Of a stretch of DNA of 64,000 bases, positions 5,855 through 53,918 are shown piece by piece. Where the stretch lies: NCBI GenBank assembly GCA_023255625.1, contig JAHFLF010000001.1, positions 94,255-158,254 on the forward strand, given 5' to 3'. The notes under the pieces are model-generated. The model was not told the origin of the DNA, did no database searches, and was given only the letters and a program-made list of their open reading frames with translations. Within the stretch, counting starts at the first letter, position 1. Every line of letters begins with the position of its first letter. Made by a program: the position numbers and the translations under genes. This DNA is from Candidatus Harrisonbacteria bacterium. GTDB lineage: Bacteria > Patescibacteriota > Minisyncoccia > UBA6257 > 1-14-0-10-44-23.

Positions 5855-5860
5855 GCTGGT

Positions 5861-5945
5861 TAGTTAGTTGACTGGTTAGCTGGTTAGTTCGTCGTCTTGG
5901 GTAATCAGTTTTTACTAATTAACCAACTAACGAACTAACTAATTA
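5861..5945. repeat. TTAGTTAG/CTAACTAA-type intergenic inverted-repeat hairpin
   Basis: ctggttagttagttgactggttagctggttagttcg ... ctaattaaccaactaacgaactaactaattaactaa. Arms built from ggttagtt units. Same family recurs at 17981-18068, 27111-27150, 34880-34920, 53068-53165, 53830-53870. Confidence 0.6.
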
Positions 5946-5946
5946 A

Positions 5947-6381
5947 CTAAATCCCTAGTTCCCCCAACCGCTCCGCAATCTCACTCGGCGCAGATTCAAT
6001 CTTTGCTTTGTCTGCGTTCCACGCATCTTCGTCCCAGATCTCTAAGCGGCTATACACGCCGGCAATAACCGCCATTTTTTTGAGGCCTGCGTAGGTACGC
6101 AAAAACTCCGGCACAAGCACGCGACCCTGCGAATCAAGCTCAACCTCGCTTGCACCGGCCAGCATCAAACGCTGAAACGAACGCGCATTAGGATTTGTAA
6201 ACGGCATGGCTTTAATTTTCTGCGCCATTTGCTCCCACTCTGGTTGCGTGAAAACATACAAACACTTATCAAGACCACGCGTGATCACGGCATGCTGGCT
6301 CAAATCAGAACGAAACTTCGCCGGCACCGCCAGCCGTCCTTTGTCGTCTATAGAGTGTTTGTATTCGCCGATGAATGCCAT
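5947..6381 (-). CDS. mraZ: Transcriptional regulator MraZ
   Basis: MAFIGEYKHSIDDKGRLAVPAKFR..., duplicated MraZ fold. First gene of the dcw cluster. Confidence 0.85.
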   Translation of the reverse strand: MAFIGEYKHSIDDKGRLAVPAKFRSDLSQHAVITRGLDKCLYVFTQPEWEQMAQKIKAMPFTNPNARSFQRLMLAGASEVELDSQGRVLVPEFLRTYAGLKKMAVIAGVYSRLEIWDEDAWNADKAKIESAPSEIAERLGELGI

Positions 6382-17972: not shown

Positions 17973-17980
17973 GAATCAGT

Positions 17981-18068
17981 TAGTTTGTTAGTTAGTCCAT
18001 AGTTAGTTAGCAAAAATCGGATACATCTATTGTACTAAGTAACTAACCAACTAACAACCAACTAACCA
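17981..18068. repeat. TTAGTTAG-type inverted-repeat hairpin between smc and Cys-rich gene A
   Basis: cagttagtttgttagttagtcc...ctaaccaactaacaaccaactaaccaa. Confidence 0.55.
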
Positions 18069-18072
18069 AATC

Positions 18073-19803
18073 TCATGCCACCTCTTGCTGGTAACAGGGC
18101 TCACAGTAAACGATCTCGGGCTGTGTTGGCGCGTATGAAGTTTGAATAGGATCCTTGCACTTCTGGCACTCACGATCATAGACCTGGAGCTTGGTGCGCT
18201 GGCTAATGCGGGCAAAGTGGCGGCAGTTTGAGCAAAGCCTCGGGAGCGGCAGATTCATGCTGCGATAAAATGCGAGTTCATCAGGAAGTACGCGGAATGC
18301 AAGCGTACATTGGTCATTGCACGATCCGGCATGCTCGCAGCCAATAATATCTGCAGTAATAGCATCCGGAACGTCCTTAATATTATCCGGTAACTCACTC
18401 GCCGGCTTAGTCACTGTATAGTTGCGCTGTGCCGCATCGCGCCACGTAAAACCACTCGCTTGTGCCTGCTCTTTGGTAAGCGGAAAGTTCTCTTGTGCCA
18501 GCGTCTCGTTGTAGGCAAACGGCGAAAGCTCTGCCGGAAAATACTCGCCATATTTGTAAATCCTCCCCTGTGCATCTAGATATGGCATTGCATCCATCTG
18601 CGCCTTAATCTTTGCAACCAGCGCAACATACTCCTCTTTTGAATACTGCTTGTTTAAAATGCAGTACTCTTTTTTGCGGAGTCCAACGCAGCCAAATAAA
18701 TTTGATGAGGCCTGACACATATACGAATACTCAATGTCATGCACCTGCTCCTGCACGTTGTAGCAAAACTTGATGTTGTTGGTGCCGAGACCGCACGCAG
18801 TGCATTCATAAATCTGCTGGTTACCTGCTCCCCACGCAGTGTAGTCATAACAATCTTTGCTGGCGGGCGTCTCCTGTACATACTGACAGTAACGCAAATT
18901 CTCGCCTTCACGCACTAAAAATGAGTTGCGCACATTGCGAGAGTGGGAAATGTAATTGCCAGAAACATCGGTATTCTGCAGGCCATTAATATACTTATTG
19001 GGGAACTTCAGCCAGAACGCCCTCGCCTGCTCCCGCATAGCCTGCACGGCCGCATACGAACCAAGATTATATTCAGTAATCTTTTTCTCATACTCCTCCT
19101 TCGTATACTGCTCATTCCATATGCAGTAAGACTTTTTACGCAACCCGACGCAACCAAAACAGTTGCTTACGCCGACACAGTCTTTGGAAAATGCAATGTC
19201 GTACGAGCTCTCACATTGCGAAGAAAAAATCGCGTTGCGACACGAAGAAAGCCAAAATCCTTCATAGCATCGCTCAGACTTTTGAAGATGCGAATTATCA
19301 ACGCAATTCTTCACGCCGCCCAGCCCGTTGCCATACATGCAGTCCTCTGCGCCCTGGCCGTTGAAAGTTAAATAACAATTTTTTGGATCAGTAAAATTAT
19401 TCACATAATCACTATTCACGCCATTTACCACATTCAGATTTTTAAGCGGTACGCTGTGGAGCAATTCTTTGAACTGCTCAAAAAATGACTTTGCTTCATC
19501 AAAGTCGCGGCCATAGGTCATCGGGTCCCACAAATCAGAAAGCCAGACATCTTTTTCGTATACCTTCACGGACGAGTCGGGTGCAAAGGCAGAAAAAATA
19601 TCCTTGCCCGAATAATCACTCTTCCGTTTAAATAAAAATCGTTCATTACGAAACGCCATTCTGCGCTGTGCCCGACACAACCAACAAAACGTTGGCGGCG
19701 GCACCGAAACTTTTTTGTAAAATTCCAAATCAGCAGAATCAATAATGAAATCCTGTTTGCAGTTCTGGCAATTTCTAGTTTCCGAGGTTGTCATAGCTAC
19801 CAA
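18073..19803 (-). CDS. Cysteine-rich zinc-ribbon protein, paralog A (576 aa, unknown family)
   Basis: Many cysteines. N-terminal C-x2-C...C-x2-C (CQNCKQ...FCWLCR). Internal duplication FGCVGLRKKSYCIWNEQYTKEEYEKK / FGCVGLRKKEYCILNKQYSKEEYVAL. C-terminal CSNCRH...CQKCKD...YCEPCYQQEVA. Clearly homologous to 22898..24637. Confidence 0.65.
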   Translation of the reverse strand: MVAMTTSETRNCQNCKQDFIIDSADLEFYKKVSVPPPTFCWLCRAQRRMAFRNERFLFKRKSDYSGKDIFSAFAPDSSVKVYEKDVWLSDLWDPMTYGRDFDEAKSFFEQFKELLHSVPLKNLNVVNGVNSDYVNNFTDPKNCYLTFNGQGAEDCMYGNGLGGVKNCVDNSHLQKSERCYEGFWLSSCRNAIFSSQCESSYDIAFSKDCVGVSNCFGCVGLRKKSYCIWNEQYTKEEYEKKITEYNLGSYAAVQAMREQARAFWLKFPNKYINGLQNTDVSGNYISHSRNVRNSFLVREGENLRYCQYVQETPASKDCYDYTAWGAGNQQIYECTACGLGTNNIKFCYNVQEQVHDIEYSYMCQASSNLFGCVGLRKKEYCILNKQYSKEEYVALVAKIKAQMDAMPYLDAQGRIYKYGEYFPAELSPFAYNETLAQENFPLTKEQAQASGFTWRDAAQRNYTVTKPASELPDNIKDVPDAITADIIGCEHAGSCNDQCTLAFRVLPDELAFYRSMNLPLPRLCSNCRHFARISQRTKLQVYDRECQKCKDPIQTSYAPTQPEIVYCEPCYQQEVA

Positions 19804-19822: not shown

Positions 19823-20989
19823 TTAACCTAAAAATTTCTCACTGTGTTTTACCAAATCAGTGTAATAGTTCATATATGAATCAGCCAAGGCTTGATCTTT
19901 TATTTCTATAACCGTCGGGATAGGATCAAAAATCTGCAAAAGTACGGTGCCATCGCTATTGATGTTAATATCAGCCATATTTTGCATGCTCCGCGAAAGT
20001 ATAGATAAATTATTTAAATGCGGACATTCTTTCGCGAGCCGCCTGTCTTCTTCACCATATTCATACATCAACATATCCCACGCAATATTCTTTTTGACAC
20101 GCAGTGCATCGTATTCTTTGTACGCGTTTCCCATCGGCCCGTACCATGTGTTTCCTAATCCCCCGATGATTGTAATCCGACTATTTTCAGGTAACCGATT
20201 GAGCAATGCTAAATGATATGCCTGAAACTCTTCCTTGCCGGAATATATTTTTACATTAGACGCGCCCAAGGAGGCGTTGGCAATGAAATTACTGATTCGT
20301 TTATTTTTTGACTCCAAAAGAAATTCATACGACTTTCCTTTTTTAATAATTTCCCCGTTTTCCATAAAGCAAACCGTATCGGCATTGGAAATGGCAAAAT
20401 TAATGTCATGTGCAACCATGAGAATACCGACGCCTCTTTTTTTAATCGCAACTAAGTGCGACAAAATAATTTCTGACTGCTCAACATCAAGCGAAGAGGT
20501 AATCTCGTCTAATAATAAATACTGCGGTTTGAGGGCAAGCGCGCGTACGAGCGCCACCCGTTGCCGCTGTCCGACCGAAGCCTCATTCGGAAAACGGTCA
20601 AGAAAACCTTTCATCTCAAACATTTCATAGAGCTCCTCAAGATACTCTGTGTTATCTTTTAAAGCGCCCCGCACTTCAAGTGGTAATTCAATATTTTTCC
20701 GAAGCGTCAGGTGCGGCCAAATAAACAATTGCTGAAAAACAACGGAAACCCGCGGCCACGGCGGGACAATGTCTTGAGGGGCCAGAGGGAAAGAGTATCC
20801 AGTAGAATCTATTGTCATTGTCCCTGTTTCGGGCAAATCCAACAAAGAGATTGCCTTGAGCAGTGTCGTCTTGCCGCTTCCGCTTGGGCCGATTATAGAA
20901 GTAATCGTTCCTGGTTTAACCTCTAAGCTAACGTTACGCAAAACAACATGGTCACCGAATTTTTTTGTTATGTTAGTTACTCGCAACAT
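19823..20989 (-). CDS. ABC transporter ATP-binding protein (amino-acid type) with ~140-aa C-terminal extension
   Basis: Walker A GPSGSGKTT, signature LSGGQRQRVALVRAL, Walker B LLLDEITSSLD. Start at MLRVTNITKKF (ATG ~20989), overlapping the permease stop. The extra C-terminal domain is unassigned. Confidence 0.85.
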   Translation of the reverse strand: MLRVTNITKKFGDHVVLRNVSLEVKPGTITSIIGPSGSGKTTLLKAISLLDLPETGTMTIDSTGYSFPLAPQDIVPPWPRVSVVFQQLFIWPHLTLRKNIELPLEVRGALKDNTEYLEELYEMFEMKGFLDRFPNEASVGQRQRVALVRALALKPQYLLLDEITSSLDVEQSEIILSHLVAIKKRGVGILMVAHDINFAISNADTVCFMENGEIIKKGKSYEFLLESKNKRISNFIANASLGASNVKIYSGKEEFQAYHLALLNRLPENSRITIIGGLGNTWYGPMGNAYKEYDALRVKKNIAWDMLMYEYGEEDRRLAKECPHLNNLSILSRSMQNMADININSDGTVLLQIFDPIPTVIEIKDQALADSYMNYYTDLVKHSEKFLG

Positions 20990-20990
20990 A

Positions 20991-21671
20991 TTATTTTTCG
21001 GACAAGTTTCTCGTGTATTTATTTTTGAACCAATATGCGAGTAGATTAAGCGGTAAGCAGATTGCGATGAAGAACACGGCAAGTGCTGTATAGATTTCTA
21101 TGGGCTTGTACACTACCGAGTTAATCTGTTGCGCCACACGAAAAAGCTCTGAGACAGAAATCAGACTGGCGAATAAAGTCAGTTGAAGCATGCTGACTTG
21201 CAGGGTAAGAAATTGCGGAATAGTCTGGCGAAAAATAATCGGCAGCTCTATTTTTGAAAAAATTTCTCTCGCTGTAAGTCCGCACACCTTCCCCGCGATC
21301 ACATACTGATCTGGAAAATCATCCAGCGCATCTCTAACTATTTGAGCAACGCCCACAATATTAATTAAGGAAAGTGCAAATGCTGCGGTTATGAATGGAA
21401 TAATCACGACCCCAAGAAGCGCTTGGAGTGGATAATGCAGCCAGAACAAAAGCACTAAAACTGGCGTACTCGCCAAAAGAAAAGAAAGAATTTTAAGAAA
21501 CCAACCGGTACTTTCTTTTTGCCGATGCGCAAACGCTCCAAAGAGTACGCCGAAAACCAAGCCCGAAAACCAAATAATCAGGCACAATCCAAGAGTTACA
21601 AGAAGGCCTGATAGCAGGCCTTCTTTGTAGGTGTAAATTATATTCCACACTGACATACGGTTACTTGGCAA
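20991..21671 (-). CDS. ABC transporter permease (polar amino-acid family)
   Basis: Multi-TM. EAA-like loop ...ALDDFPDQYVIAGKVCGLTAREIFSKIELP. Confidence 0.8.
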   Translation of the reverse strand: MPSNRMSVWNIIYTYKEGLLSGLLVTLGLCLIIWFSGLVFGVLFGAFAHRQKESTGWFLKILSFLLASTPVLVLLFWLHYPLQALLGVVIIPFITAAFALSLINIVGVAQIVRDALDDFPDQYVIAGKVCGLTAREIFSKIELPIIFRQTIPQFLTLQVSMLQLTLFASLISVSELFRVAQQINSVVYKPIEIYTALAVFFIAICLPLNLLAYWFKNKYTRNLSEK

Positions 21672-22539
21672 CTACATATGGCGGCGCAGCCCGGTAGAAA
21701 CCGCCCGGGTAGTCTTTTTCAAATCCGTTGATTACGCCGTCAACATAGCCGTTATTCAATAATTCAATAAGAGCATTATCAATGGTTGACTTGAATGTAA
21801 ACTCTCCCTTTTTGATCATCATGACATTGCCGTAGATGACGACCGGCTTAACAACGGAAACATTTTTTACTTTCCCGGGGTTATTTTTTATGTACGCATT
21901 GGCAACTGTCGGCTCTAAAAATGCCATATCAACTTTGCCATCAACAACATTGAGAAGCATTTGAGAAACGTCTGTCAGCTGCGGCAATTGGAGAGTCTTA
22001 GCATTTGGGAATTGGCGAGAAGCGATCAGTTGTGATGTTTCTCCGTCAATAGTCGCTAATTTATAATTTGCGTTATTCGCAACCGTTACATCACTGTTAA
22101 ATCTATTATCACTGGCGCGGACATATGCGTTAATAGCGCTATAGTAAACGGGCTCCGAAAACTCCGCACTTTTACCGCGTGTTGAATTACTCCACGACGG
22201 AGAACCGATAATGTCGCATTTGCTGGAATTAAGGGCTTCAATCATATCTCCCCAACCAACTTCGGTATTCCAATCAACTTTCAGGCCCATATTTTCTGCC
22301 GCCTTGTCCAACGTTTGCACGAACACACCTGATAATTTCCCGGTATTGGGGTCTTTAATAGAGGCCGGCGGGTAGACGACATAGCAAGCCCGTATAGTGC
22401 CGGAACTAATTACTCTGTCGTACACGGAACTCCCTGCTAAACTTACCGGCGAAGAACCGGACAATTTTATCGTAATTAAACTCACTACGACAGTCAGAAT
22501 CACAACGCCAAGGATTTTGAACCAATTTCCATTTTTCAT
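21661..22539 (-). CDS. ABC transporter substrate-binding protein (family 3 / PBPb, polar amino-acid type)
   Basis: N-terminal TM anchor/signal, then periplasmic-binding-protein type 2 fold motifs. Operon with permease and ATPase. Confidence 0.75.
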   Translation of the reverse strand: MKNGNWFKILGVVILTVVVSLITIKLSGSSPVSLAGSSVYDRVISSGTIRACYVVYPPASIKDPNTGKLSGVFVQTLDKAAENMGLKVDWNTEVGWGDMIEALNSSKCDIIGSPSWSNSTRGKSAEFSEPVYYSAINAYVRASDNRFNSDVTVANNANYKLATIDGETSQLIASRQFPNAKTLQLPQLTDVSQMLLNVVDGKVDMAFLEPTVANAYIKNNPGKVKNVSVVKPVVIYGNVMMIKKGEFTFKSTIDNALIELLNNGYVDGVINGFEKDYPGGFYRAAPPYVVAK

Positions 22540-22605
22540 AATTAATAAAGATATTTGATAATAATGATACCACGCTCATAGCGGCTCACTTTTGCCCGAC
22601 GAAAA

Positions 22606-22755
22606 CAAAAGAGCGCCCAACTTAGAGCCTTTCTCGGCTCGTGGTCGCTCAAATTCAGATCCGAAGGTGCGATCTCGCTTTCGTCCGCACGCTCAGATCA
22701 AAATTCAATACTACGCATTCAAGATAGCATGAATTCAAAATCCTGTCAATCCCCC
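22606..22755 (-). promoter_or_regulatory. Conserved ~110-nt 5' leader element, copy a (upstream of the ABC operon)
   Basis: Shares the core ...cagatcc.aag.gcgat.t.cg...c.cgctcagatc.aaa.tcaat.c... with 24700-24810 and 25375-25505. Minus-strand RNA ends in a U-rich tail right before the SBP start. Confidence 0.55.
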
Positions 22756-22800
22756 GCTGTTATACTAATTCCACGGCCGTTGAATTAGTATAACAGCGAC
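22756..22800. repeat. 17-bp perfect inverted repeat hairpin
   Basis: cgctgttatactaattc cacggccgt tgaattagtataacagcg, then ctttattttt. Confidence 0.55.
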
Positions 22801-22823
22801 TTTATTTTTACTAACTAACCGAC

Positions 22824-22897
22824 TCACGCCACCTCTTGCTGATAGCACCCCAGTACTAGAACCTGCTGGTTCAGTACGGGGCATGCTCAATACACAA
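22824..22897 (-). other. Insertion with a conserved 34-nt hairpin (22848-22881) plus a displaced original gene end (synonymous duplicate of the last 8 codons of gene B)
   Basis: Minus read: current end TGT TAT CAA CAA GAG GTA GCA TAA, then spacer + hairpin CCCCGTACTGAACCAGCAGGTTCTAGTACTGGGG, then TGC TAT CAG CAA GAG GTG GCG TGA (same CYQQEVA*, every difference at a third position), then the ggttagtt repeat as found after gene A. Confidence 0.6.
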
Positions 22898-24637
22898 TTA
22901 TGCTACCTCTTGTTGATAACATTCTATGCAATATACTTTTTCGGGCCGGTCGGGGGCGTACGAAGTTTCAAATTGATTTTGGCATTGGGTTTCACCGTGC
23001 TGGTGCGTGGCCGCTCCCGGGCACTGACACGAACGCGGCCAGAGTGTAAGAGGATTGCGTTTCGCAATGCGCTCATAATGGCGGCAGTTTGGGCAGAGCC
23101 GCGGCAATGGCAATGATGCAAGTTTATAGAGAGTCAGGTCTTCCGGCAAAATTCTGAATGCGGTCGTACACTGATGCATGCATCCGTTATGAGCACAACT
23201 TATAATTGCCTTGGTCACCTCATCGCCAGCATCTGCGGCAGAATCCGGCAACTCATCTGGCTGCATCGTAATTTTATAGTTACGCTGCGGTTCATCTCGC
23301 CAGCCATAGCCGGCCACAATAGCATCTTCTTTTGAGAGAGGGAAGAAATCGTGCCCCATTGTTTCGTTGTACACAAATGGCGACAAATCACTTGGAAAAA
23401 ATTCGCCGTACTTGTAGACAAGCCCGCGCTTATCAATATATGGCGTCGTGTCCATTTGCATTTTTATCTTTCCGACCATCGTCTCATACTCCTCTTTGGT
23501 GTATTGCTTGTTCAAAATACAGTACTGACTTTTTTTCATACCAACGCAACCAAACAAATCTTTAGATCCGTGGCAGTTCATGACATATTCGCAATCAATG
23601 ACTTGCTCCCAGCACTCATTGGCAAATTTTAAATTGGCTATTTGTCTACCACAGTTTTGAACTTCATACATACGCTCGGCCGTCGCTCCCCAATGGTTAA
23701 AATCCATTGAATCTTTTGCATCAAAAAGCGAAAGCCCGTACCGAACATTCTGAACATTACGACAGGTGAAAGAACGGGAGACATCCTGACAATGGTCAAT
23801 CCAGTTGCCGCTCACTCGCATCCCTTGGCGCACAACAAGAGCCGGGACAATGAACTGTCTTTTAAATTCATCAAATTTTTTGCGAAGCAGCTCAACGGAA
23901 CGAGCCGAATGTATATTGAGTTCAGCAATTTTTTTCTCATACTCCTCTTTAGTGTACTGTTCGTTCCATATACAGTACTGTTTATTTTTCAAATTTACGC
24001 AGCCGAAAGAATTTTGAACATTCATACAGTTCAGCAAAAACCACGAGTCCGAGCAGTTATTTGATTCTTGCGAAAAGGCAACGCTGTAGCACTGCGAACA
24101 ATCAATGCACTCATAACACCGCTCTGATTTTTGTGTGCCAAAACAATCTAAACACTCTTTTGAGGACATAATCCAGGTACTATACCGAGAGTTTTCCGCG
24201 CCGGTCGTTGCAAACACAAGATAACAATTTTTCATATCTGTTACCCGATTTGTATACTCACTATTGATACTCTGACCCTGCTTGATAATGCCCGGGCGAG
24301 GCACGGCAAGCAGCAATTCTTTGAACTGCTCGAAAAATGGCCGGGTAAAATCGTAATCGCGCGCATATGTTTTTGCATCCCACGACTCTGACCACCAGCA
24401 CGGATAGCAAAAAACAGAATGAGGGCTGTCTGGGCTGTACATCAAAATCTTTTCCTGCTTGCAAAGTCCGCATGGACGCTTAAATAGTGTTCGCTCACTA
24501 CGCCAAATAAATCGCCGGAGCAGCCGGCACTGCGGACAAAATGTCGGCTCGGGTACTTTAAGCATGGTTAAAAACTCCGTGTCCTCCGCGGTAATTTCAA
24601 ACTGCTGCTTGCACTGCTGACAATTTTTTGCTGCCAT
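22898..24637 (-). CDS. Cysteine-rich zinc-ribbon protein, paralog B (579 aa)
   Basis: Same architecture as 18073..19803 (~45 % identity by eye). Internal duplicate FGCVNLKNKQYCIWNEQYTKEEYEKK / FGCVGMKKSQYCILNKQYTKEEYETM. Extra N-terminal CGLCKQ...CYPC ribbon. C-terminal ...YCIECYQQEVA. Confidence 0.65.
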   Translation of the reverse strand: MAAKNCQQCKQQFEITAEDTEFLTMLKVPEPTFCPQCRLLRRFIWRSERTLFKRPCGLCKQEKILMYSPDSPHSVFCYPCWWSESWDAKTYARDYDFTRPFFEQFKELLLAVPRPGIIKQGQSINSEYTNRVTDMKNCYLVFATTGAENSRYSTWIMSSKECLDCFGTQKSERCYECIDCSQCYSVAFSQESNNCSDSWFLLNCMNVQNSFGCVNLKNKQYCIWNEQYTKEEYEKKIAELNIHSARSVELLRKKFDEFKRQFIVPALVVRQGMRVSGNWIDHCQDVSRSFTCRNVQNVRYGLSLFDAKDSMDFNHWGATAERMYEVQNCGRQIANLKFANECWEQVIDCEYVMNCHGSKDLFGCVGMKKSQYCILNKQYTKEEYETMVGKIKMQMDTTPYIDKRGLVYKYGEFFPSDLSPFVYNETMGHDFFPLSKEDAIVAGYGWRDEPQRNYKITMQPDELPDSAADAGDEVTKAIISCAHNGCMHQCTTAFRILPEDLTLYKLASLPLPRLCPNCRHYERIAKRNPLTLWPRSCQCPGAATHQHGETQCQNQFETSYAPDRPEKVYCIECYQQEVA

Positions 24638-24699
24638 AAAAAATAACTACTATTATATTAATTAATAGTAGCATTGGCAGCTGCGCGAGGACTGGTCGC

Positions 24700-24810
24700 A
24701 CAACAAAAAGCGGCAAAATATATTGCTCGCTTCAATCCAGATCTAAACGCGCGATTTTCGACTATCCTCACGCTCAGATCCAAACTCAATGCTCTATGAT
24801 TACTTTAGCA
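24700..24810 (-). promoter_or_regulatory. Conserved 5' leader element, copy b (upstream of Cys-rich paralog B)
   Basis: Minus-strand RNA has stems GAUCUGAGCG / CGUUUAGAUC (compensatory pairs relative to the other copies). A terminator-like AAGCGAGCAA..UUGCCGCUU + UUUGUUGU sits ~60 nt before the ATG. Confidence 0.55.
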
Positions 24811-24875
24811 CTGATTGAGCGCCTTGTAAATGTTCGCGGGCCGGCACACCTTGCGGTGGCCGGCCCGGAATTGCT

Positions 24876-25349
24876 TCATGGGTCTCTCCTTGTTGCTTGA
24901 GCTACGAGCGGCGCCAAGACCCTCGTCAAGCTCTTGGCGGCTGCGCCACTGCAGTCGATAGGGGCAACCAAACTACTAAGCGCATCAAGCCACTCCGGGT
25001 CTTGAGGGGTAGTAACCAACATGAATAGCTGGCAAAGCACCTTCCCTCTCGAGCCATCGCTCGGTCGCCCATACTCTAACGCCTCAACGGTATCCTGCAA
25101 GGAACCCCAGAACATGTGAATGCAGGAGTTGCTAGCAGGCCACTCGTGGGCACAACCGTCATGGCTCTCAGCGATTGTCCTCTGAGTCTTGCCATCGTTG
25201 AACTCAAGGCGGGCCCGGCCGTTGCCGTCTTTCAAAAATCCGACAACGAAGTACGGGAAACCGTCACCCATGGGCCCGGTTCGGATCTTCCGCGTCGCCA
25301 CAACCTCCCATCCGTCGAACGCCCGAATGCTCTTATCGATCTTGCTCAT
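24876..25349 (-). CDS. hypothetical protein, high-GC (157 aa from MSKIDKS)
   Basis: GC-rich island 24840-25350. Preceded by leader copy c. Confidence 0.4.
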   Translation of the reverse strand: MSKIDKSIRAFDGWEVVATRKIRTGPMGDGFPYFVVGFLKDGNGRARLEFNDGKTQRTIAESHDGCAHEWPASNSCIHMFWGSLQDTVEALEYGRPSDGSRGKVLCQLFMLVTTPQDPEWLDALSSLVAPIDCSGAAAKSLTRVLAPLVAQATRRDP

Positions 25350-25374
25350 TGTCCACCTCTTTAGTTTTGGAGAA

Positions 25375-25505
25375 AAAACAAAAAGAGCCCTCAACGCGAG
25401 TGCTCAAATACAGATCCTAAAGCGCGATTTTCGACTATCCTCGCCGTAAGACCTACATTCAATGACAAAATAAGATTAGCATATCATAGCCAATCTGTCA
25501 ATCTC
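25375..25505 (-). promoter_or_regulatory. Conserved 5' leader element, copy c
   Basis: 22 nt (agcgcgattttcgactatcctc) identical to copy b. Minus RNA ends GAGCACUC GCGUU GAGGGCUC UUUUUGUUUUUU, a terminator-like hairpin plus U-run just upstream of the ORF. Confidence 0.55.
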
Positions 25506-25634
25506 TATTTACCTATTCGTACGAATGAGGGCATAGAAAAATCCCTCACCGCCTGGTGGCGGTACTCCCTTTAGACGCGGACAACAAATCCCTCACCGCT
25601 ACTGCGGTCCCCTCCCTTTAGGAAAGGGAGAATA

Positions 25635-26861: not shown

Positions 26862-27110
26862 ACAGTATTCGCAAACACGCTAATAAAAACTAATACGCTA
26901 ATCATACACGAAGTCAATCAATTCGTGTATTCGCGATTATTCGCGTGTTAGTGATTGCTGGCCCACTTCTTCGGAATAATCCGATGCGGAAATGTCGGCA
27001 TCTTTGTCGCCTTGTCTGCAACAATGTTCAGCGGCTTGAGCGCTAAATGAGAACGGCGGCGGCGGACTTTTCCGCTTGTCGGATGTTTTGGAGGTAGTGA
27101 ACCCATATAA

Positions 27111-27150
27111 ACTAGTTAATCGGTTAGTCAGTTAGTTGGTTAGTTAGTTT
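27111..27150. repeat. TTAGTTAG-type repeat cluster
   Basis: ctagttaatcggttagtcagttagttggttagttagttt. Confidence 0.5.
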
Positions 27151-27293
27151 AAAACTCGGAAGCAATGCAAAAAAGGATACCAGGAAGATAAAAAAGATGC
27201 AAATTTGGAAATTTATTTTGTCGGGGCGGCGCGCTTCGCGCACCGCCCCGACGACTGCCCGCCTTGGGCGGGCTTACCCCCTGGAGAGCGGAG

Positions 27294-27778
27294 CTACTTC
27301 GGCCGGCTCGGCTCCTCCAGGATGATCGGGAGCCGAACCGCTTCTTCGGACAGAGCCCCGTCCGAGGAATACTCGTACCACTTCGGTCCGCCGCTCCTGA
27401 TACGAATGCCGACGATGCCGCCGTCAGCCGCGATCTCCAGCGGAAACCTGCCGAAGCCCTCATCCTCGTAGACGACCGTCCTGTCTCCGCTTGGCAGCCA
27501 GAGACCCTTCTTCCAGCAGATGACCCATTCGTGGGTCCCGGGCACGGACCAGACATAGAAGGTCGTCGCGGCCTTGTTCGTCTTGGCCATCCGCCGGACC
27601 TCCGAGAGGAAGGTGCAGTGTCCAACGAACTCCGCCGGTAGCTCCTGGACGATCCGCCAGTCCGTCTTCTCCTGTGCCTGCAGCTCGTCGCGCCACTTGC
27701 CCGGCCACACGAAACCGAAGAAGGCCACGACCACTGCAACTCCGAGAATCCTTCCGAACAACGAACTAATGGACATCT
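27294..27778 (-). CDS. hypothetical membrane-anchored protein, high-GC (161 aa)
   Basis: AGGAGG 7 nt before ATG (MSISSLFGRILGVAVVVAFFGF...). Single N-terminal TM. Strongly GC3-biased codons. The overlapping Arg/Ser-rich 228-aa track ORF reads as the wrong frame. Confidence 0.5.
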
Positions 27779-27882
27779 TGAGACCTCCTGCCCCGCGAAA
27801 CCCGCCATGGGCTCGCTTTGGGACAAACTCACCATGCAACTTTTTTAACTTTTTTGCAACCGAGTAGGAAAATACCTTGAAG

Positions 27883-34727: not shown

Positions 34728-34919
34728 GTAATGTCTTTCACGATTGCCTCCTTACCGAAACGACAATGCGCCGTTTGGAAAATCAGAATATAATATTTTT
34801 TATATTTAGTCAATTTTCCCAGTTGCACTACGGCTAATTTTTTGCTAAAATATATCTATCGTTTTTAAATTTCTCTTACGCATTAACCGACTAACTGTCG
34901 ACCGACTAACCGACTAACT

Positions 34920-35901: not shown

Positions 35902-38400
35902 ATGGACGAAGAACCAAAAGCAAAAAATAACGCGATCGAGCAGCGGGAAATCACCGATGAGCTAAAAGAAAGCTATCTGGACTATGCCATGAGCGTGATT
36001 GTCGCCCGTGCTCTGCCAGATGTGCGCGACGGCTTAAAGCCGGTGCAGCGCCGGATTCTCTGGGGCATGTGGGACTCGGGCGTAACCGCTGATGCCAAAT
36101 TCCGAAAATCAGCCGACATCGTCGGCGAGGTCATGGGTAAATACCACCCGCACGGCGACTCTTCTATTTACCAAACCATTGTCCGGATGGTTCAGGATTT
36201 TAGTTTCCGTTATCCGCTCTGTATCGGCCAGGGTAATTGGGGTTCGGTAGATGGCGACGAGGCCGCGGCTTATCGTTACACTGAAACCAAACTTGCCCGC
36301 GTGGCCGAGGCGCTACTGGCTGATATTGATAAAGACACTGTGGACTGGACGCCAAACTATTCCGGCACCAAGCAGGAACCAAAATTTTTACCAACTAAAA
36401 TCCCGAGTCTTTTGCTAAACGGTACAGCCGGTATCGCCGTCGGCATGGCCACCAACATTCCGCCACACAATCTGGGCGAGGTTGTTGATGCAACTTTACA
36501 CCTGGCCGATAACCCGAAGGCAACGACCGAGGATCTGACTGAATTTATCAAAGGGCCGGACTTCCCGACCGGCGGCGTCATTTATAATAAAAAAGATATT
36601 TTAGAGTGTTACACCACCGGCCGCGGCCCAATCACCATGCGTGGCGTCGCGGAAATCCGCGAGCGAAAAGGCGCTAAGGGCTTTGATATCGAGGTTACAG
36701 AAATCCCCTACCAAGTTAATAAAAGCGAACTGCTGATGCGCATGGCCGAGCTCGTACAGGAGAAAAAAATCGAGGGCGTACGCGACATCCGCGACGAGAG
36801 CGATAAAAACGGCATGAGCATCGTCATCGAGCTTAAAAATGATGCCAATCCGCAAAAAATCCTGAATCAACTTTTTGAATATACTGATTTGCAGAAAAAC
36901 TTTGCCGTGAACATGGTGGCGCTAACCGACGGCGGATTGCAACCGCAAACTATGTCGTTACGCGATATGCTGGCGGCATTTTTAGATCACCGCAAATTAG
37001 TGGTTAAGCGCCGCGGCGAACACGACCTGCGCAAAGCCAAAGAACGCGAACACATTTTGGAGGGACTGGAAAAAGCGCTTTCGGCAATCGACAAAATCAT
37101 CGCCCTGATCCGCAAATCCGACAGCCGCGAAGAGGCGCACGGCAACTTAATGAAGCAGTTCAAATTCAGCGCTTTGCAGGCAAATGCAATTTTGGAAACC
37201 AAACTGGCGACTCTTGCGCACCTGGAAAGATATAAAATAGAAGAGGAATTGAAAGAAAAACGAAAACTGATTGCCGAACTAGAAGCGCTCTTAAAAAGCA
37301 CGGCAAAAATTCTGGCCGTTATTAAAGAAGAACTAAAAGAAGTCCGGGAACGATTTGGCGACGAGCGACGTACGCGCGTTGTAGCCGGCGGCATAAAGGA
37401 CTTCTCCGAAGAAGACCTGATTGCCAACGAGGAGACGATTATCACGCTTAGCCAGAGCGGCTACATCAAGCGCGTTGCGCCAAGCAGCTTTAAAGTGCAA
37501 AACCGCGGCGGCAAGGGGCTCATCGGCTCCGATGTTGCCGACGACGACTTTATTTCTCAAATCAACTTTGCCCACACGCACGACAACCTGCTCTTCTTTA
37601 CCGACCGCGGTCGCGTCTTCCAAACCAAAGTCTGGGAATTGCCGGCGGCCAGCCGCCAGAGCAAGGGCAAGCCGGTGCACAACTTCCTGGAGATGCCGCT
37701 TGAAGAAAAAGTAAATGCGATTATTACATATCCGAGCGACTTAGGACAAAGGACTAAGGACAAAGGACAGGATGCAAAGTCCTCGGTTCTAAGTTCTATG
37801 TTCTTAGTTATGAGTACAGTCCGCGGCATGATTAAGAAAACGCCGCTGGCCGATTTTGGCAATGTTCGCCGCTCTGGCATTATCGCAATCGGGCTACACA
37901 AAGACGACACTCTGCAGTGGGTTAAACTATCAACTGGTACTGATGAAATAATCATTACGACTCACGACGGCCAGTCAATTCGCTTCCCGGAAAAACAGGC
38001 ACGCTCGATGGGCCGCTCCGCCGCGGGCGTTACCGCGATCAAGCTCAAGGGCAAAGATTTTGTCAGTTCGATGAATGTCATCACAAAGGAGCAGGAAAAA
38101 GAATGTAAGTTGCTCGTGGTGATGAGCAACGGTTATGGCAAACAAACTCCGCTTGGCCAATACCGCCTGCAAAGCCGTGGCGGATCAGGCATCAAAACCG
38201 CCGAGGTTACAGCCAAAACCGGCGCCGTTATGGACGCGCGAATAGTTTCAAATGAAAAAGAACTGATCGCACTTTCAGCCAAGGGCCAGGTTATCCGAAC
38301 TGATATTGGCTCAATCCGAACCGCCTCGCGTGCCACGCAGGGTGTCCGAATTATGAATGTGGAAAGTGGCGACCATGTAATTGGAATCATCTGCTTCTAG
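35902..38400 (+). CDS. gyrA: DNA gyrase subunit A
   Basis: [25 protein letters not shown], active-site Tyr region, YHPHGD QRDR-like motif, C-terminal beta-pinwheel repeats. Confidence 0.95.
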
Positions 38401-38417
38401 GGCACAAATATCGCAGA

Positions 38418-38510
38418 TTTGCTTTTTAGAGGGACTCTCGGAGCGCGACGGCGCGAGAGCGAGGGCAATTTTTCAGCAGAAAAATATGCCTGTGCCCTCT
38501 AAAAAGCAAA
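38418..38510. repeat. Hairpin-core element copy 1: conserved ~60-nt core inside a 17-bp palindrome, at the gyrA 3' end
   Basis: ttgctttttagagggac [ctctcggagcgcgacggcgcgagagcgagggcaatttttcagcagaaaaatatgcct] gtgccctctaaaaagcaa. Core shared with copies at 46073-46195, 51268-51370, 61125-61245. Confidence 0.7.
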
Positions 38511-38521
38511 GCTGCGATATT

Positions 38522-38536
38522 TGTGGTATCATAAAT
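38522..38536 (+). promoter_or_regulatory. tgtggtatcataaat motif (variant of a recurring extended -10-like box)
   Basis: Same tgtggtatactaaat motif occurs at 43746 and 53543. Here it is only ~4 nt before the ATG, which would imply a leaderless transcript. Confidence 0.25.
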
Positions 38537-46072: not shown

Positions 46073-46195
46073 CGTAAAACATATTCGGGTCAGCGCTAGC
46101 GGCAATTCTCGGACCGCGACGGCGGGAGAGTATAGACCGATTTTTCACCAGAAAAATACGGACGGTGCCGTCTGCGCTGACCCGAATATGTTTTA
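46073..46195. repeat. Hairpin-core element copy 2 (inside a 20-bp perfect palindrome)
   Basis: gtaaaacatattcgggtcagcgc [tagcggcaattctcggaccgcgacggcgggagagtatagaccgatttttcaccagaaaaatacggacggtgccgtct] gcgctgacccgaatatgttttac. Confidence 0.7.
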
Positions 46196-51267: not shown

Positions 51268-51370
51268 CGGAACAGCCGGGATTTTTATTCCTGGGGACTC
51301 TCACAGGCCGACGGGCCGAGAGCGAGGGTGAATTTTCTCCAGAAAATTACACCTGTGCCCCAGGAATAAA
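51268..51370. repeat. Hairpin-core element copy 3 (inside a ~20-bp palindrome)
   Basis: ccgggatttttattcctggggac [tctcacaggccgacgggccgagagcgagggtgaattttctccagaaaattacacct] gtgccccaggaataaaaatcccgg. Confidence 0.7.
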
Positions 51371-51527
51371 AATCCCGGGCACTCCGTTAACCTATTGACC
51401 TATAACGGCTCTCTACCGTATACTTCTAGTGAGACTTTTCTCACTTTACTATCTAATGTATTTCTGTTCCCTAAAAATTTCATGATCGAGATCGTGGTTG
51501 TGAAGAACATACGGGACATCTACTCAT

Positions 51528-53066
51528 ATGGAATTTCTGACCAACCCCTTTGTCTGGGTATTTTTAGTCTTATTTTTAGTCTTCGGTATCGCGGCCGGTT
51601 ACTACTTCCGCCACTCGCGCGGAGCTAAGAACGCCGGATCAGTCGAGCAGCAAACACAAGCCAAACTCGCCGAAGCGCAAAAGCAGGCCGAGCATTTTGT
51701 CGCTGACGCAAAATTAAAAGCCGCCGAGCAAATCAGCGAGGGGCAAAAACAAGAACGCGAACGGAAACAAAAATTAGACCAGCTTGAAGAGCGACTTTTA
51801 AAACGCGAAGAGTCTTTGCAGGCGCAACTGCTAAATCTGACTACCAGAGAGACGAAGTTCAACGAAGAAATTAAAAAGGTAGAACAGGTCAAAGAGCAGG
51901 CCGAGCTCGCCTACGCTAAGGCAACTGCTCACCTCGAGCAGATTACCGGCATGAAGCAGGAGGATGCCAAGGCCATGATCATTAAGGATGTTACCGAGAA
52001 GTACAAGGGCGATCTGGTTACCAGTATCCAAAAAGTTGAACACGAGCGACGCGACGAGATTGAAAAGAAGGCCTCGGAGATTATTACCACCGCGCTGATG
52101 CGTTATGCACGCAGCCAAGTCGCCGATGTTACTACCAGTGTCTTCCATCTGCCGAGCGAGGACATCAAGGGTAAAATTATCGGCCGTGAAGGGCGCAATA
52201 TTAAAGCACTGGAGCGAGCAACCGGAGTGGAAATTGTCATTGACGAAGCGCCGGAATCAATCATCCTCTCTTCTTTTGATCCGCTGCGCCGTGAAATCGC
52301 CCGCATGACGCTCGAGCGGATGATTAAAGACGGCCGCATCCAGCCGGCGCGCATCGAAGAAACTGTCGAACAATGTAAAACTGAACTCATCCGCCGCATG
52401 CAGGAAATTGGTGAACAGGCCACGCTCGAGGTCGGCATCGCCGGCTTTCCGAAAGAAATTCTGCAGCTGCTCGGCCGGCTACACTTCCGCACTAGCTACG
52501 GACAAAATGTGCTGATGCACTCTTTGGAGATGGCGCACATCGCCGGTATGATTGCCCGCGAACTCGGCTGCAATGTTGATATTGCCAAAAAAGGTGCGCT
52601 CGTCCACGACATCGGCAAGGCCATCAGTCATGAAGTCGAGGGTACGCATGTGGAACTTGGCCGGAAAATTCTGGCGAAATACGGCGTGGAGCAAGCGGTA
52701 ATCACCGCAATGGAAAGCCACCACGAGGACTACCCGTTTACCAGCCCGGAGGCCTACATTGTTACGGCGGCCGATATTCTTTCTGCAGCCCGCCCTGGCG
52801 CTCGCCGAGATACCGTCGAACAGTACATAAAACGGCTGAAAGACCTGGAGGAGATCACCAGCAAGTTTGCGGGCGTGAAACAGGCCTACGCTCTTTCTGC
52901 CGGCCGTGAGGTGCGCGTCTTTGTTGTACCGGAAAAAATTGACGACTTTGCCGCACTGCAAATGGCCCGCGATATTGCCAGCCGTATCCAAACCGAGATG
53001 AAGTATCCGGGTGAGATTAAAGTAAATGTTATCCGCGAGACCCGGGCGGTGGAATACGCGCGATAG
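51528..53066 (+). CDS. rny: Ribonuclease Y
   Basis: N-terminal TM, coiled-coil, KH domain (...KGKIIGREGRNIKALE...), HD domain (...HSLEMAHIAGMIA...HDIGK...). Confidence 0.92.
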   Translation: MEFLTNPFVWVFLVLFLVFGIAAGYYFRHSRGAKNAGSVEQQTQAKLAEAQKQAEHFVADAKLKAAEQISEGQKQERERKQKLDQLEERLLKREESLQAQLLNLTTRETKFNEEIKKVEQVKEQAELAYAKATAHLEQITGMKQEDAKAMIIKDVTEKYKGDLVTSIQKVEHERRDEIEKKASEIITTALMRYARSQVADVTTSVFHLPSEDIKGKIIGREGRNIKALERATGVEIVIDEAPESIILSSFDPLRREIARMTLERMIKDGRIQPARIEETVEQCKTELIRRMQEIGEQATLEVGIAGFPKEILQLLGRLHFRTSYGQNVLMHSLEMAHIAGMIARELGCNVDIAKKGALVHDIGKAISHEVEGTHVELGRKILAKYGVEQAVITAMESHHEDYPFTSPEAYIVTAADILSAARPGARRDTVEQYIKRLKDLEEITSKFAGVKQAYALSAGREVRVFVVPEKIDDFAALQMARDIASRIQTEMKYPGEIKVNVIRETRAVEYAR

Positions 53067-53067
53067 G

Positions 53068-53165
53068 AATTTAGTTAGTTGGTTAATTAGTTAGCTGGTT
53101 AGTTGGTAGAAACGAAATTCCAGTCTCGCTAACTAACAAACTAACTAGCTAACCAACTAACCAAT
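53068..53165. repeat. TTAGTTAG-type inverted-repeat hairpin downstream of rny
   Basis: tagttagttggttaattagttagctggttagttgg ... cgctaactaacaaactaactagctaaccaactaacc. Confidence 0.55.
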
Positions 53166-53628: not shown

Positions 53629-53829
53629 ATGGCCATTACAACCGCAACTAAAAAGTTTTTCAAAGTTACTCTGATTGTGATCGTCGTGTTCGGCATGCTC
53701 GCAATCTACCTGGCCCCGCTTTTTAGCGGCGGCGTACAGCAGCGAGTACAGCAGCAGCCGGTCGACTTCACCGGCCCCACCGGTGCGCCCTTCGTAAATG
53801 GCCCGTCGGCTCCCCCGCCGGGAAAATAG
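53629..53829 (+). CDS. small membrane protein, hypothetical (66 aa from MAITTATKKFF)
   Basis: One TM helix, Gln/Pro-rich tail. Confidence 0.35.
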   Translation: MAITTATKKFFKVTLIVIVVFGMLAIYLAPLFSGGVQQRVQQQPVDFTGPTGAPFVNGPSAPPPGK

Positions 53830-53918
53830 TCAGTTAGTTAGTTGACGGTTAGTCGGTTAGTTAGTAAGCACCGGCAAACCTTGCAGTTGAGGATATATCT
53901 GGTAGAATAATCTGCATT

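Follow-up and report, generated by a model that had tools for sequence, protein, structure and literature searches.

A covarying leader hairpin with an adjacent terminator-like hairpin in a small clade of Patescibacteria: a candidate transcription attenuator

Three leader units on the minus strand

The 64,000-nucleotide stretch of DNA analysed here, called the window throughout, belongs to a Candidatus Harrisonbacteria bacterium of the Patescibacteria (NCBI GenBank assembly GCA_023255625.1, contig JAHFLF010000001.1, positions 94,255 to 158,254 of the forward strand). An earlier reading, made from the letters alone (the sequence-only reading), had drawn attention to three copies of a leader with two nested stems, P1 and P2, and a terminator, and had proposed a riboswitch or an attenuator. 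The leaders precede an ABC importer operon (copy a), a gene for a cysteine-rich protein (copy b) and an ORFan (copy c). All coordinates are window positions, and all three units are read on the minus strand. Each is composed of a promoter, a long hairpin (H1) and a second hairpin with a U-run (H2), followed by the gene.

22749-22602, minus strand: unit a (promoter, H1, H2 with U-run, then gene)
22721-22749, minus strand: promoter a, TTGACA-17-TATCTT with TG one base 5' of the -10 element; promoter scan, 10/12 matches
22652-22705, minus strand: H1 of copy a, about 20 pairs, with U-U and C-C mismatches and apical loop CGAAAGCGAGA
22650-22611 (22602-22650 with tail), minus strand: H2 of copy a, GAGCG...CGCUC, -18.5 kcal/mol, U-run UUUUGUUUU; resembles an intrinsic terminator
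22539, minus strand: ATG start codon after copy a
24830-24699, minus strand: unit b (promoter, H1, H2 with U-run, then gene)
24802-24830, minus strand: promoter b, TTTACA-17-TAAAGT with TG; promoter scan
24734-24786, minus strand: H1 of copy b, 18 contiguous pairs plus apical GAU/AUC pairs
24733-24708 (24699-24733 with tail), minus strand: H2 of copy b, GAAGCGAGCAA...UUGCCGCUU, U-run UUUGUUGUG
24647-24671, minus strand: H3 of copy b, a CUACUAU...AUAGUAG hairpin, then a U-rich spacer and the ATG
24637, minus strand: ATG start codon after copy b
25501-25373, minus strand: unit c (promoter, H1, H2 with U-run, then gene)
25473-25501, minus strand: promoter c, TTGACA-17-TAATCT with TG; read by eye and aligned with the other copies
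25407-25459, minus strand: H1 of copy c, from fold and alignment
25405-25385 (25373-25405 with tail), minus strand: H2 of copy c, GAGCACUC-GCGUU-GAGGGCUC, U-run UUUUUGUUUUUU
25349, minus strand: ATG start codon after copy c

The promoters, absent from the sequence-only reading, are all near-consensus sigma-70 promoters with a TG-extended -10 element. Promoter c was missed by the promoter scan, as its -10 element agrees at 3/6 positions only. Alignment of the window copies showed that the promoter belongs to the conserved unit. H1 begins about 15 nt 3' of the -10 element, and H2 begins 1-3 nt after the end of H1. The distance from the last base of the U-run to the ATG is 62 nt (a), 61 nt (b) or 23 nt (c).

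The three minus-strand copies withstood systematic searches. A 22-nt degenerate core pattern matched the window three times, compared to 0.07 matches expected, and a covariance model scored copies a, b and c at 71-87 bits. For copy a the model match spanned 22640-22716 with 74-82 bits, and the opposite strand of this copy reached only 13 bits. No fourth copy was detected by the model in the 64 kb, even with the search filters switched off. Copies b and c are near-duplicates of each other (78% over 63 nt). The wobble differences that had been quoted between copies were accurate: at columns 22/55 and 23/54 of alignment A3, the pairs are U-G and G-C in copy a, U-A and G-U in copy b, and U-G and U-A in copy c. 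The hairpin and U-run said to end each copy were likewise located, as H2. The stem pairing is real, but P1 and P2 proved to be parts of the same continuous hairpin, H1, which has single mismatches along its length. RNAfold z-scores of the single copies were modest (-1.8 for a, -3.7 for b and -1.8 for c), and the real support is the comparative data rather than single-copy fold statistics.

Conservation and covariation in related genomes

Contigs carrying close homologues of the cysteine-rich protein encoded after copy b (paralog B) were searched with the covariance model. This yielded 11 further copies in 7 related Patescibacteria assemblies, and therefore 14 distinct copies in 8 assemblies.

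L004 (GCA_040384425.1): 2 copies
L088 and L112 (L112 is the same sequence as L088): 1 copy
L089: 2 copies
L090 (GCA_023244975.1): 2 copies
L124: 1 copy
L126: 1 copy
L129: 2 copies

In all 14 copies H1 is abutted by a GC-rich H2 that has a U-rich tail, and a same-strand gene follows. A promoter with a TG-extended -10 element was present at constant spacing from H1 in every copy whose upstream sequence was examined. Covariance scores were 51-87 bits, compared to 12-15 bits on the reverse strand. The H2 tails contain 3-8 U per 9 nt, and the sequence of H2 is not conserved except for its first bases, which are part of the conserved 3' flank of H1.

H1 is a helix of 20-22 bp in about 54 nt. Covariation was measured on a model-fitted alignment of the 14 copies, in which an H1 of 20 pairs amounts to 280 pair cells. 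Standard pairs occupied 94.6% of these cells, and 8/20 pairs showed compensatory double changes. Both sides had changed, for example, from C-G to A-U or U-A at columns 25/60, from C-G to G-C or U-A at 32/53, and from G-C to A-U at 36/50; G-U, G-C, A-U and U-A all occur at 27/58, and 30 further pair types were seen in H1. None of 500 shuffles reached any of five pairing measures, and when the 3' partner was slid by 1-3 columns as a control, pairing fell to 16-44%. RNAalifold, applied to a plain MAFFT alignment that had not been fitted to the model, arrived at this hairpin too, and 7 of the pairs it predicted were compensatory. About 63 of the 280 cells (~22%) are G-U pairs, which become A-C mismatches on the other strand, and the structure therefore exists on the transcribed strand only. 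A DNA palindrome or a structure of the opposite strand was ruled out by this G-U content together with the reverse-strand scores.

Much of H1 is also conserved in sequence. Four pairs are invariant and many more nearly so. The conserved arms are GGUCUGA and UUGGAUCUG, and a conserved purine-rich internal loop (GCG-R-GGA / (G)AUC-R-CGC) lies within the helix. Conserved GGA and GAUC flank the apex on either side, and columns 34/51 of alignment A5, near the top of H1, hold a conserved, mostly purine-purine mismatch. The apical loop is variable in sequence and 8-12 nt long. Conserved positions are mostly in Watson-Crick or wobble pairs rather than in a junction or pocket. Outside the helix, the flanks (U)AGCAUUG on the 5' side and AUU(U)GA(G/A)(G/A)C on the 3' side are conserved as well.

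The leader is thus conserved and covaries outside the genome in which it was noticed. A segmental duplication of coding or promoter DNA was ruled out by the compensatory pairing in 8 assemblies and by the unrelated H2 sequences. The sequence-only reading had recognised no known riboswitch class in the motif, and Rfam 15 gave no match to it either. Over the whole window Rfam 15 returned 4 tRNAs and nothing else, and between 22400 and 25700, at E <= 10, two chance snoRNA matches within the coding region only.

The carrier genomes are close kin. RNase III is 71-86% identical among them, most have nusB-rnc a short way upstream, and the copies sit at syntenic places in the 8 assemblies while the adjoining intergenic sequence has diverged. 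Beyond this group, 80 loci from other Patescibacteria species with homologues of the cysteine-rich protein had no copy. A scan of JGI metagenome contigs with a degenerate 26-nt pattern returned 30 stretches, of which one was a genuine copy (L112), and no copy was present on viral contigs. One weak look-alike from the metagenome scan, L114 (23.6 bits), was discarded because many of its pairs are broken. The distribution of the motif is therefore restricted to a narrow clade, which limits its general importance.

Genes beside the leaders and other features of the window

Downstream genes were compared among the 14 copies. In 9/14 the gene encodes a cysteine-rich protein of about 580 aa (here the Cys-rich family), and in L088 a 58-aa zf_Tbcl gene comes first and the Cys-rich gene second. 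Of the remaining 4 copies, window a precedes the ABC operon, which ends in a Cys-rich gene, and window c the ORFan, while L089 copy 2 is followed by a receiver-domain gene and L129 copy 1 by an N_methyl pilin-like gene. Both in the window and in L129, a leader-gene unit lies directly 5' of a second leader with a Cys-rich gene. The genes around the window copies are as follows.

19823-22539, minus strand: operon 3' of copy a, an ABC importer of the polar-amino-acid type
21661-22539, minus strand: SBP_bac_3 gene of this ABC operon
20991-21671, minus strand: permease gene of this ABC operon
19823-21082, minus strand: ATPase gene of this ABC operon
18073-19803, minus strand: Cys-rich paralog A, 576 aa, separated by 19 nt from the preceding ABC ATPase gene
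22898-24637, minus strand: Cys-rich paralog B, 579 aa, downstream of copy b; treble-clef zinc-finger family
24876-25349, minus strand: ORFan, 157 aa, downstream of copy c

Paralog A is probably the last gene of the copy-a operon, and paralogs A and B are 48% identical. The Cys-rich family has more than 7,900 database relatives at E <= 0.001 and is very abundant in Patescibacteria; names among the relatives include Liptonbacteria, Jorgensenbacteria and Paceibacterota. Its genes are often arranged in tandem arrays of 3-5 paralogs (L001-L003, L006), and the proteins contain internal repeats (families D2 and D6). Some members match the treble-clef models zf_Tbcl or zf_Tbcl_2 at the protein ends. 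The two window paralogs had no match in Pfam, NCBIfam or PADLOC and a single weak match in PHROG, where no function is assigned. For the Cys-rich protein, a sequence search of the PDB returned no relative, and its AlphaFold model was mediocre (pLDDT 67) and matched nothing in a fold search. In related genomes an SMC-like ATPase of ~730-750 aa is encoded 3' of the Cys-rich genes (17627-21089 in L004, with similar genes in L090, L124 and L126), followed by an unannotated protein of ~370-400 aa. The L004 ATPase matches the PADLOC models mad3 (E = 7e-63) and LmuB, and the pair may form a defence-type module beside the Cys-rich family.

Cys-rich genes have an extra hairpin, H3, and a U-rich spacer just before the ATG. 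The window, L004, L090 and L129 share an H3 that reads CUACUAU...AUAGUAG, whereas the arms are GC-rich in L089 and L124; its loop lengths and arm sequences vary between genomes while the hairpin is kept. The AAUGCUACUAU box in H3 of copy b is common to the other group-1 leaders. In the same group, the 5' flank AGCAUUG could pair with a CAAUGCU box after H2 to form a further helix, P0, which appears in the minimum-free-energy (MFE) folds of window copy b and L090 copy 1 and is absent from the other leader groups. If it forms, P0 would enclose a multi-branch loop and be in competition with H3; both of its strands are invariant and so show no covariation. In copy c, the 3' arm of H2 and its U-run (CUCUUU) are complementary to the downstream Shine-Dalgarno sequence AAAGAGG, and predicted pairing of this arm and U-run with a downstream purine-rich segment recurs in several leaders. 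A U-run followed by a purine-rich ribosome-binding region is a common arrangement.

The GC content of the ORFan, in 300-nt windows, is 55-57%, compared to ~37-53% in neighbouring genes, and a search of 5.8 billion proteins found no homologue but the ORFan itself. The genes rnc and nusB lie upstream of the three-unit cluster. Beyond the cluster, a 228-aa open reading frame (ORF) on the minus strand at 27149-27835 has a GC content of 61-65% in 300-nt windows, with roughly 37-53% mostly around it, and had no match in a Pfam search. Together with the ORFan, it suggests recently acquired or fast-evolving DNA near the nusB-rnc cluster. A 24-codon ORF (MKQFRAGHRKVCRPANIYKALNQC, 24806-24880, minus strand) between the ORFan and copy b, whose 3' end overlaps promoter b, also had no Pfam match and may be spurious. 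Three short GC-rich hairpins (ccctttcctaaagggagggg, accgcagtagcggt, and taccgccaccaggcggtg with AGGGATTTTT) follow the rnc stop codon at 25547-25630 on the minus strand, and similar 'cccttNNaagggag' hairpins lie 5' of the second leader of L004. Judged from sequence, the hairpins at 25547-25630 are probably terminators of nusB-rnc that insulate the leader promoters.

The window contains two further kinds of repeat. A second, unrelated structured repeat is present in three copies (38402-38530, about 46085-46195 and 51278-51382), each with a long perfect closing helix, different in sequence per copy, around a conserved core (GGGACUCUC-hairpin-GAGAGCGAGGG-hairpin-CCUGUGCCC) with the predicted fold of a three-way junction. 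For this repeat RNAfold gave z-scores of -11.0 and -8.5. Rfam gave no match at the gathering threshold and, for copy 1, none at E <= 10; copy 1 begins right after the stop codon of an 832-aa ORF (35902-38400). In addition, short tandem repeats of the GGTTAGTT / GTTAGTTA type occur in many intergenic regions, one of them between paralog B and promoter a, and a similar stretch lies 5' of the L088 leader.

5859-5947: GGTTAGTT/GTTAGTTA-type repeat
17976-18055: GGTTAGTT/GTTAGTTA-type repeat
22797-22827: GGTTAGTT/GTTAGTTA-type repeat
27107-27165: GGTTAGTT/GTTAGTTA-type repeat
34888-34918: GGTTAGTT/GTTAGTTA-type repeat
53066-53161: GGTTAGTT/GTTAGTTA-type repeat
53822-53867: GGTTAGTT/GTTAGTTA-type repeat

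Possible mode of action of the leaders

That the units are real cis-acting leader RNAs with a terminator we regard as highly probable. The more specific proposal, that they are transcription attenuators dependent on a factor acting in trans, is the one we favour, and we give it about an even chance. Transcription would start a few nucleotides 5' of H1 from the strong sigma-70 promoter with its TG-extended -10 element, and the first ~65 nt would fold into the G-U-rich H1. The intrinsic terminator H2 would form 1-3 nt later. As H2 forms straight after H1, most transcripts would end as an RNA of ~95-115 nt, and the downstream gene would be encoded by read-through transcripts only. In window copy c, with its 23 nt before the ATG, and in L129 copy 1, where H1 and the ATG are only ~45 nt apart and most of this is H2, a further promoter would not fit, so that the gene would depend on read-through.

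Full-length leaders were also folded and translated. H1 was present in the MFE structure of every full-length leader and has zero nucleotides in common with H2, and no antiterminator or alternative pairing with H1 was found in the predicted folds. Since no other structure competes with H1, we do not regard it as a switching aptamer. Three-frame translation of 12 leaders showed stop codons in all frames and no common peptide. There is no conserved leader ORF, and the element is therefore not a leader-peptide attenuator.

Under the attenuator proposal, H1 would be a constitutive, sequence-specific docking site for the trans-acting factor. A factor bound at the base of H1 would cover the 3' flank, whose bases make up the first half of the H2 stem, and would thereby decide whether H2 forms. 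We infer that termination is regulated and that the effector is most likely a protein. A protein is likelier than a metabolite because the conserved positions lie in a regular helix, no switching is seen and the main downstream genes encode zinc-finger proteins. The favoured candidates would be the downstream Cys-rich treble-clef zinc-finger proteins themselves, acting by feedback, because this is the usual logic of structured leaders before genes of nucleic-acid-binding proteins. In the surveys of the Breaker laboratory, such leaders are classed as autoregulatory 'protein-binding candidates' (PMC11109978). The sequence-only reading had seen the architecture of a transcription-attenuation riboswitch or of a protein-mediated antiterminator. 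Its observation is confirmed, and of its interpretation the conserved leader RNA with a terminator holds, the protein-mediated half fits better, and nothing specific to a metabolite riboswitch was found; the data favour an attenuator, and a riboswitch is unproven and less likely.

Several known systems resemble the units in part. Like the leaders governed by RAT-LicT/SacY/BglG, PyrR, HutP and TRAP, they have a conserved 5'-leader hairpin beside an intrinsic terminator, conserved sequence that extends into the 5' half of the terminator stem, and several operons per genome with the same element. Unlike RAT, which is 29 nt long and overlaps its terminator, H1 has ~20 pairs (~54 nt), is intrinsically stable and abuts H2 with no overlap. 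No homologue of CAT-PRD (CAT_RBD/PRD), PyrR, HutP or TRAP was found among the neighbouring proteins scanned, the whole genome not having been included. ANTAR leaders are two tandem short hexaloop hairpins (A1, G4), the second overlapping the terminator, rather than one long hairpin with a variable 8-12 nt loop, and the receiver-domain proteins beside the motif contain no ANTAR domain. A single long hairpin does not have the shape of an ANTAR or RAT target. Autoregulatory and ribosomal-protein leaders (the category of PMC11109978) share with the units a structured 5' untranslated region before genes for putative nucleic-acid-binding (zinc-finger) proteins and paralogous genes that each have a copy. 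They differ in that nucleic-acid binding by the Cys-rich family is putative, that 4 copies here precede unrelated genes, and that the expression platform here is a terminator and theirs is sequestration of the ribosome-binding site.

Other explanations were weighed against the factor-dependent attenuator. A metabolite or ion riboswitch, in which H1 takes up a ligand such as Zn2+ or a cysteine-related compound in its internal loop and apical part and thereby alters termination at H2, would account for the leader-then-terminator architecture, for the covariation and the conserved purine-purine mismatch at columns 34/51, and, as a new class, for the lack of an Rfam match. Single-hairpin riboswitches with an internal-loop pocket do exist, one example being the THF-II folE motif (PMC6800512). 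THF-II (folE) and NMT1 (xanthine) also resemble the units in having one 5'-leader hairpin with internal mismatches and, in some representatives, a terminator after it. In those RNAs, however, a conserved unpaired block forms the pocket and the basal helix competes with the platform, whereas H1 has single mismatches only, no competing helix and a non-metabolic gene context. Because H1 forms in every fold and the terminator uses none of its nucleotides, a switching helix is lacking; the conserved positions are nearly all paired and the apical loop varies, the downstream genes form no coherent metabolic pathway, and the distribution is very narrow. We consider a riboswitch unlikely. Zn2+ or a cysteine compound come up as ligands because zinc-finger and amino-acid-importer genes lie downstream. 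Still more doubtful is the conjecture of a new riboswitch class of this Patescibacteria clade with H1 as its aptamer, which would sense a metal or thiol through the purine-rich internal loop and tandem G-U pairs and gate both the zinc-finger family and the importer. If true, the Candidate Phyla Radiation (CPR) would have its first specific riboswitch, possibly also the first of any kind to respond to zinc, and discovery of a small-molecule or metal ligand would make the motif highly interesting.

It also seems unlikely that the copies are stand-alone small RNA genes, each producing an abundant RNA of ~100 nt that acts in trans (as a protein sponge, for example) while the genes have their own promoters. 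Every copy does have its own strong promoter and terminator, group-1 Cys-rich leaders have a second -10-like element after H2 (TGCTACTAT / TATAAT inside the AAUGCUACUAU box), and the promoter scan gave CTGCCA-17-TATAAT at 24680-24652. Yet the copies are always immediately 5' of a same-strand gene, and window c and L129 copy 1 lack room for a promoter between H2 and the start codon. Furthermore, AAUGCUACUAU is the 5' arm of a hairpin whose arms and loop length vary between genomes, as in transcribed RNA. The terminated product could nevertheless additionally act in trans. A helix of ~22 bp has the size of a bacterial RNase III substrate, and H1, at 20-22 pairs and within ~10 nt of the predicted 5' end, might be cleaved, or shield the 5' end, and so set mRNA half-life or translation. 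The gene rnc is upstream or a near neighbour in the window, L004, L089, L090 and L124, it adjoins in most carrier genomes, and the leader targets of RNase III (E. coli rnc, phage T7 R1.1, lambda N) have a comparable helix of about two turns with internal mismatches near the mRNA 5' end. Cleavage and 5' protection need shape rather than sequence, whereas H1 is strongly conserved in sequence, with 4 invariant pairs beside a fully diverged H2; the obligatory adjacent terminator would be unexplained, and in so narrow a clade plain synteny could account for the nusB-rnc neighbourhood. A processing or stability element is accordingly distinctly unlikely in our judgement. Processive antitermination, with H1 modifying the polymerase in cis for read-through of H2 and H3 in the manner of HK022 put or Bacillus EAR, would suit a promoter-proximal structured RNA followed by 2-3 successive terminator-like hairpins (window b, L089 copy 2). 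But put is built of two stem-loops bearing specific bulges, EAR is larger and pseudoknotted, neither resembles H1, and there was no Rfam match; we find this very improbable. Least credible of all is a feature of the DNA itself, either duplicated promoter DNA or a palindromic repressor operator. The near-duplication of copies b and c and the inclusion of the promoter in the conserved unit would agree with it. The ~22% G-U cells, however, would be mismatches in DNA, eight pairs are compensatory, a 55-nt interrupted palindrome 3' of the -10 element does not have operator geometry, and the copies have kept their syntenic positions across 8 assemblies despite divergence of the intergenic DNA around them.

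Several points also weigh against the factor-dependent attenuator that we favour. The transcription start site, termination and read-through are all predictions. As H1 has no overlap with H2, the link between factor binding and termination is conjecture, and the terminator tails are weak in L004 copy 1, L089 copy 1 and L129 copy 1. Because 4/14 copies precede other genes, simple autoregulation is incomplete as an explanation. The evidence on the Cys-rich family consists of treble-clef Pfam matches in some members, with no solved relative and no fold match. Finally, the carrier clade is narrow, and part of the sequence conservation could be due to recent common descent.

Literature on riboswitches and structured or non-coding RNA in Patescibacteria or CPR bacteria yielded no description of such an element and no cis-regulatory RNA specific to Patescibacteria. 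Attenuators in 5' leaders are already known; the RNA motif is new, limited to a small Patescibacteria clade and tied to a large uncharacterised protein family. Almost nothing is known of gene regulation in the Patescibacteria (Candidate Phyla Radiation), and the motif provides a regulatory RNA that lends itself to testing, its promoter, hairpin and terminator all being defined. Once found, the factor that binds H1 would constitute the first regulator-operator pair for Patescibacteria and would give a functional handle on the Cys-rich family.

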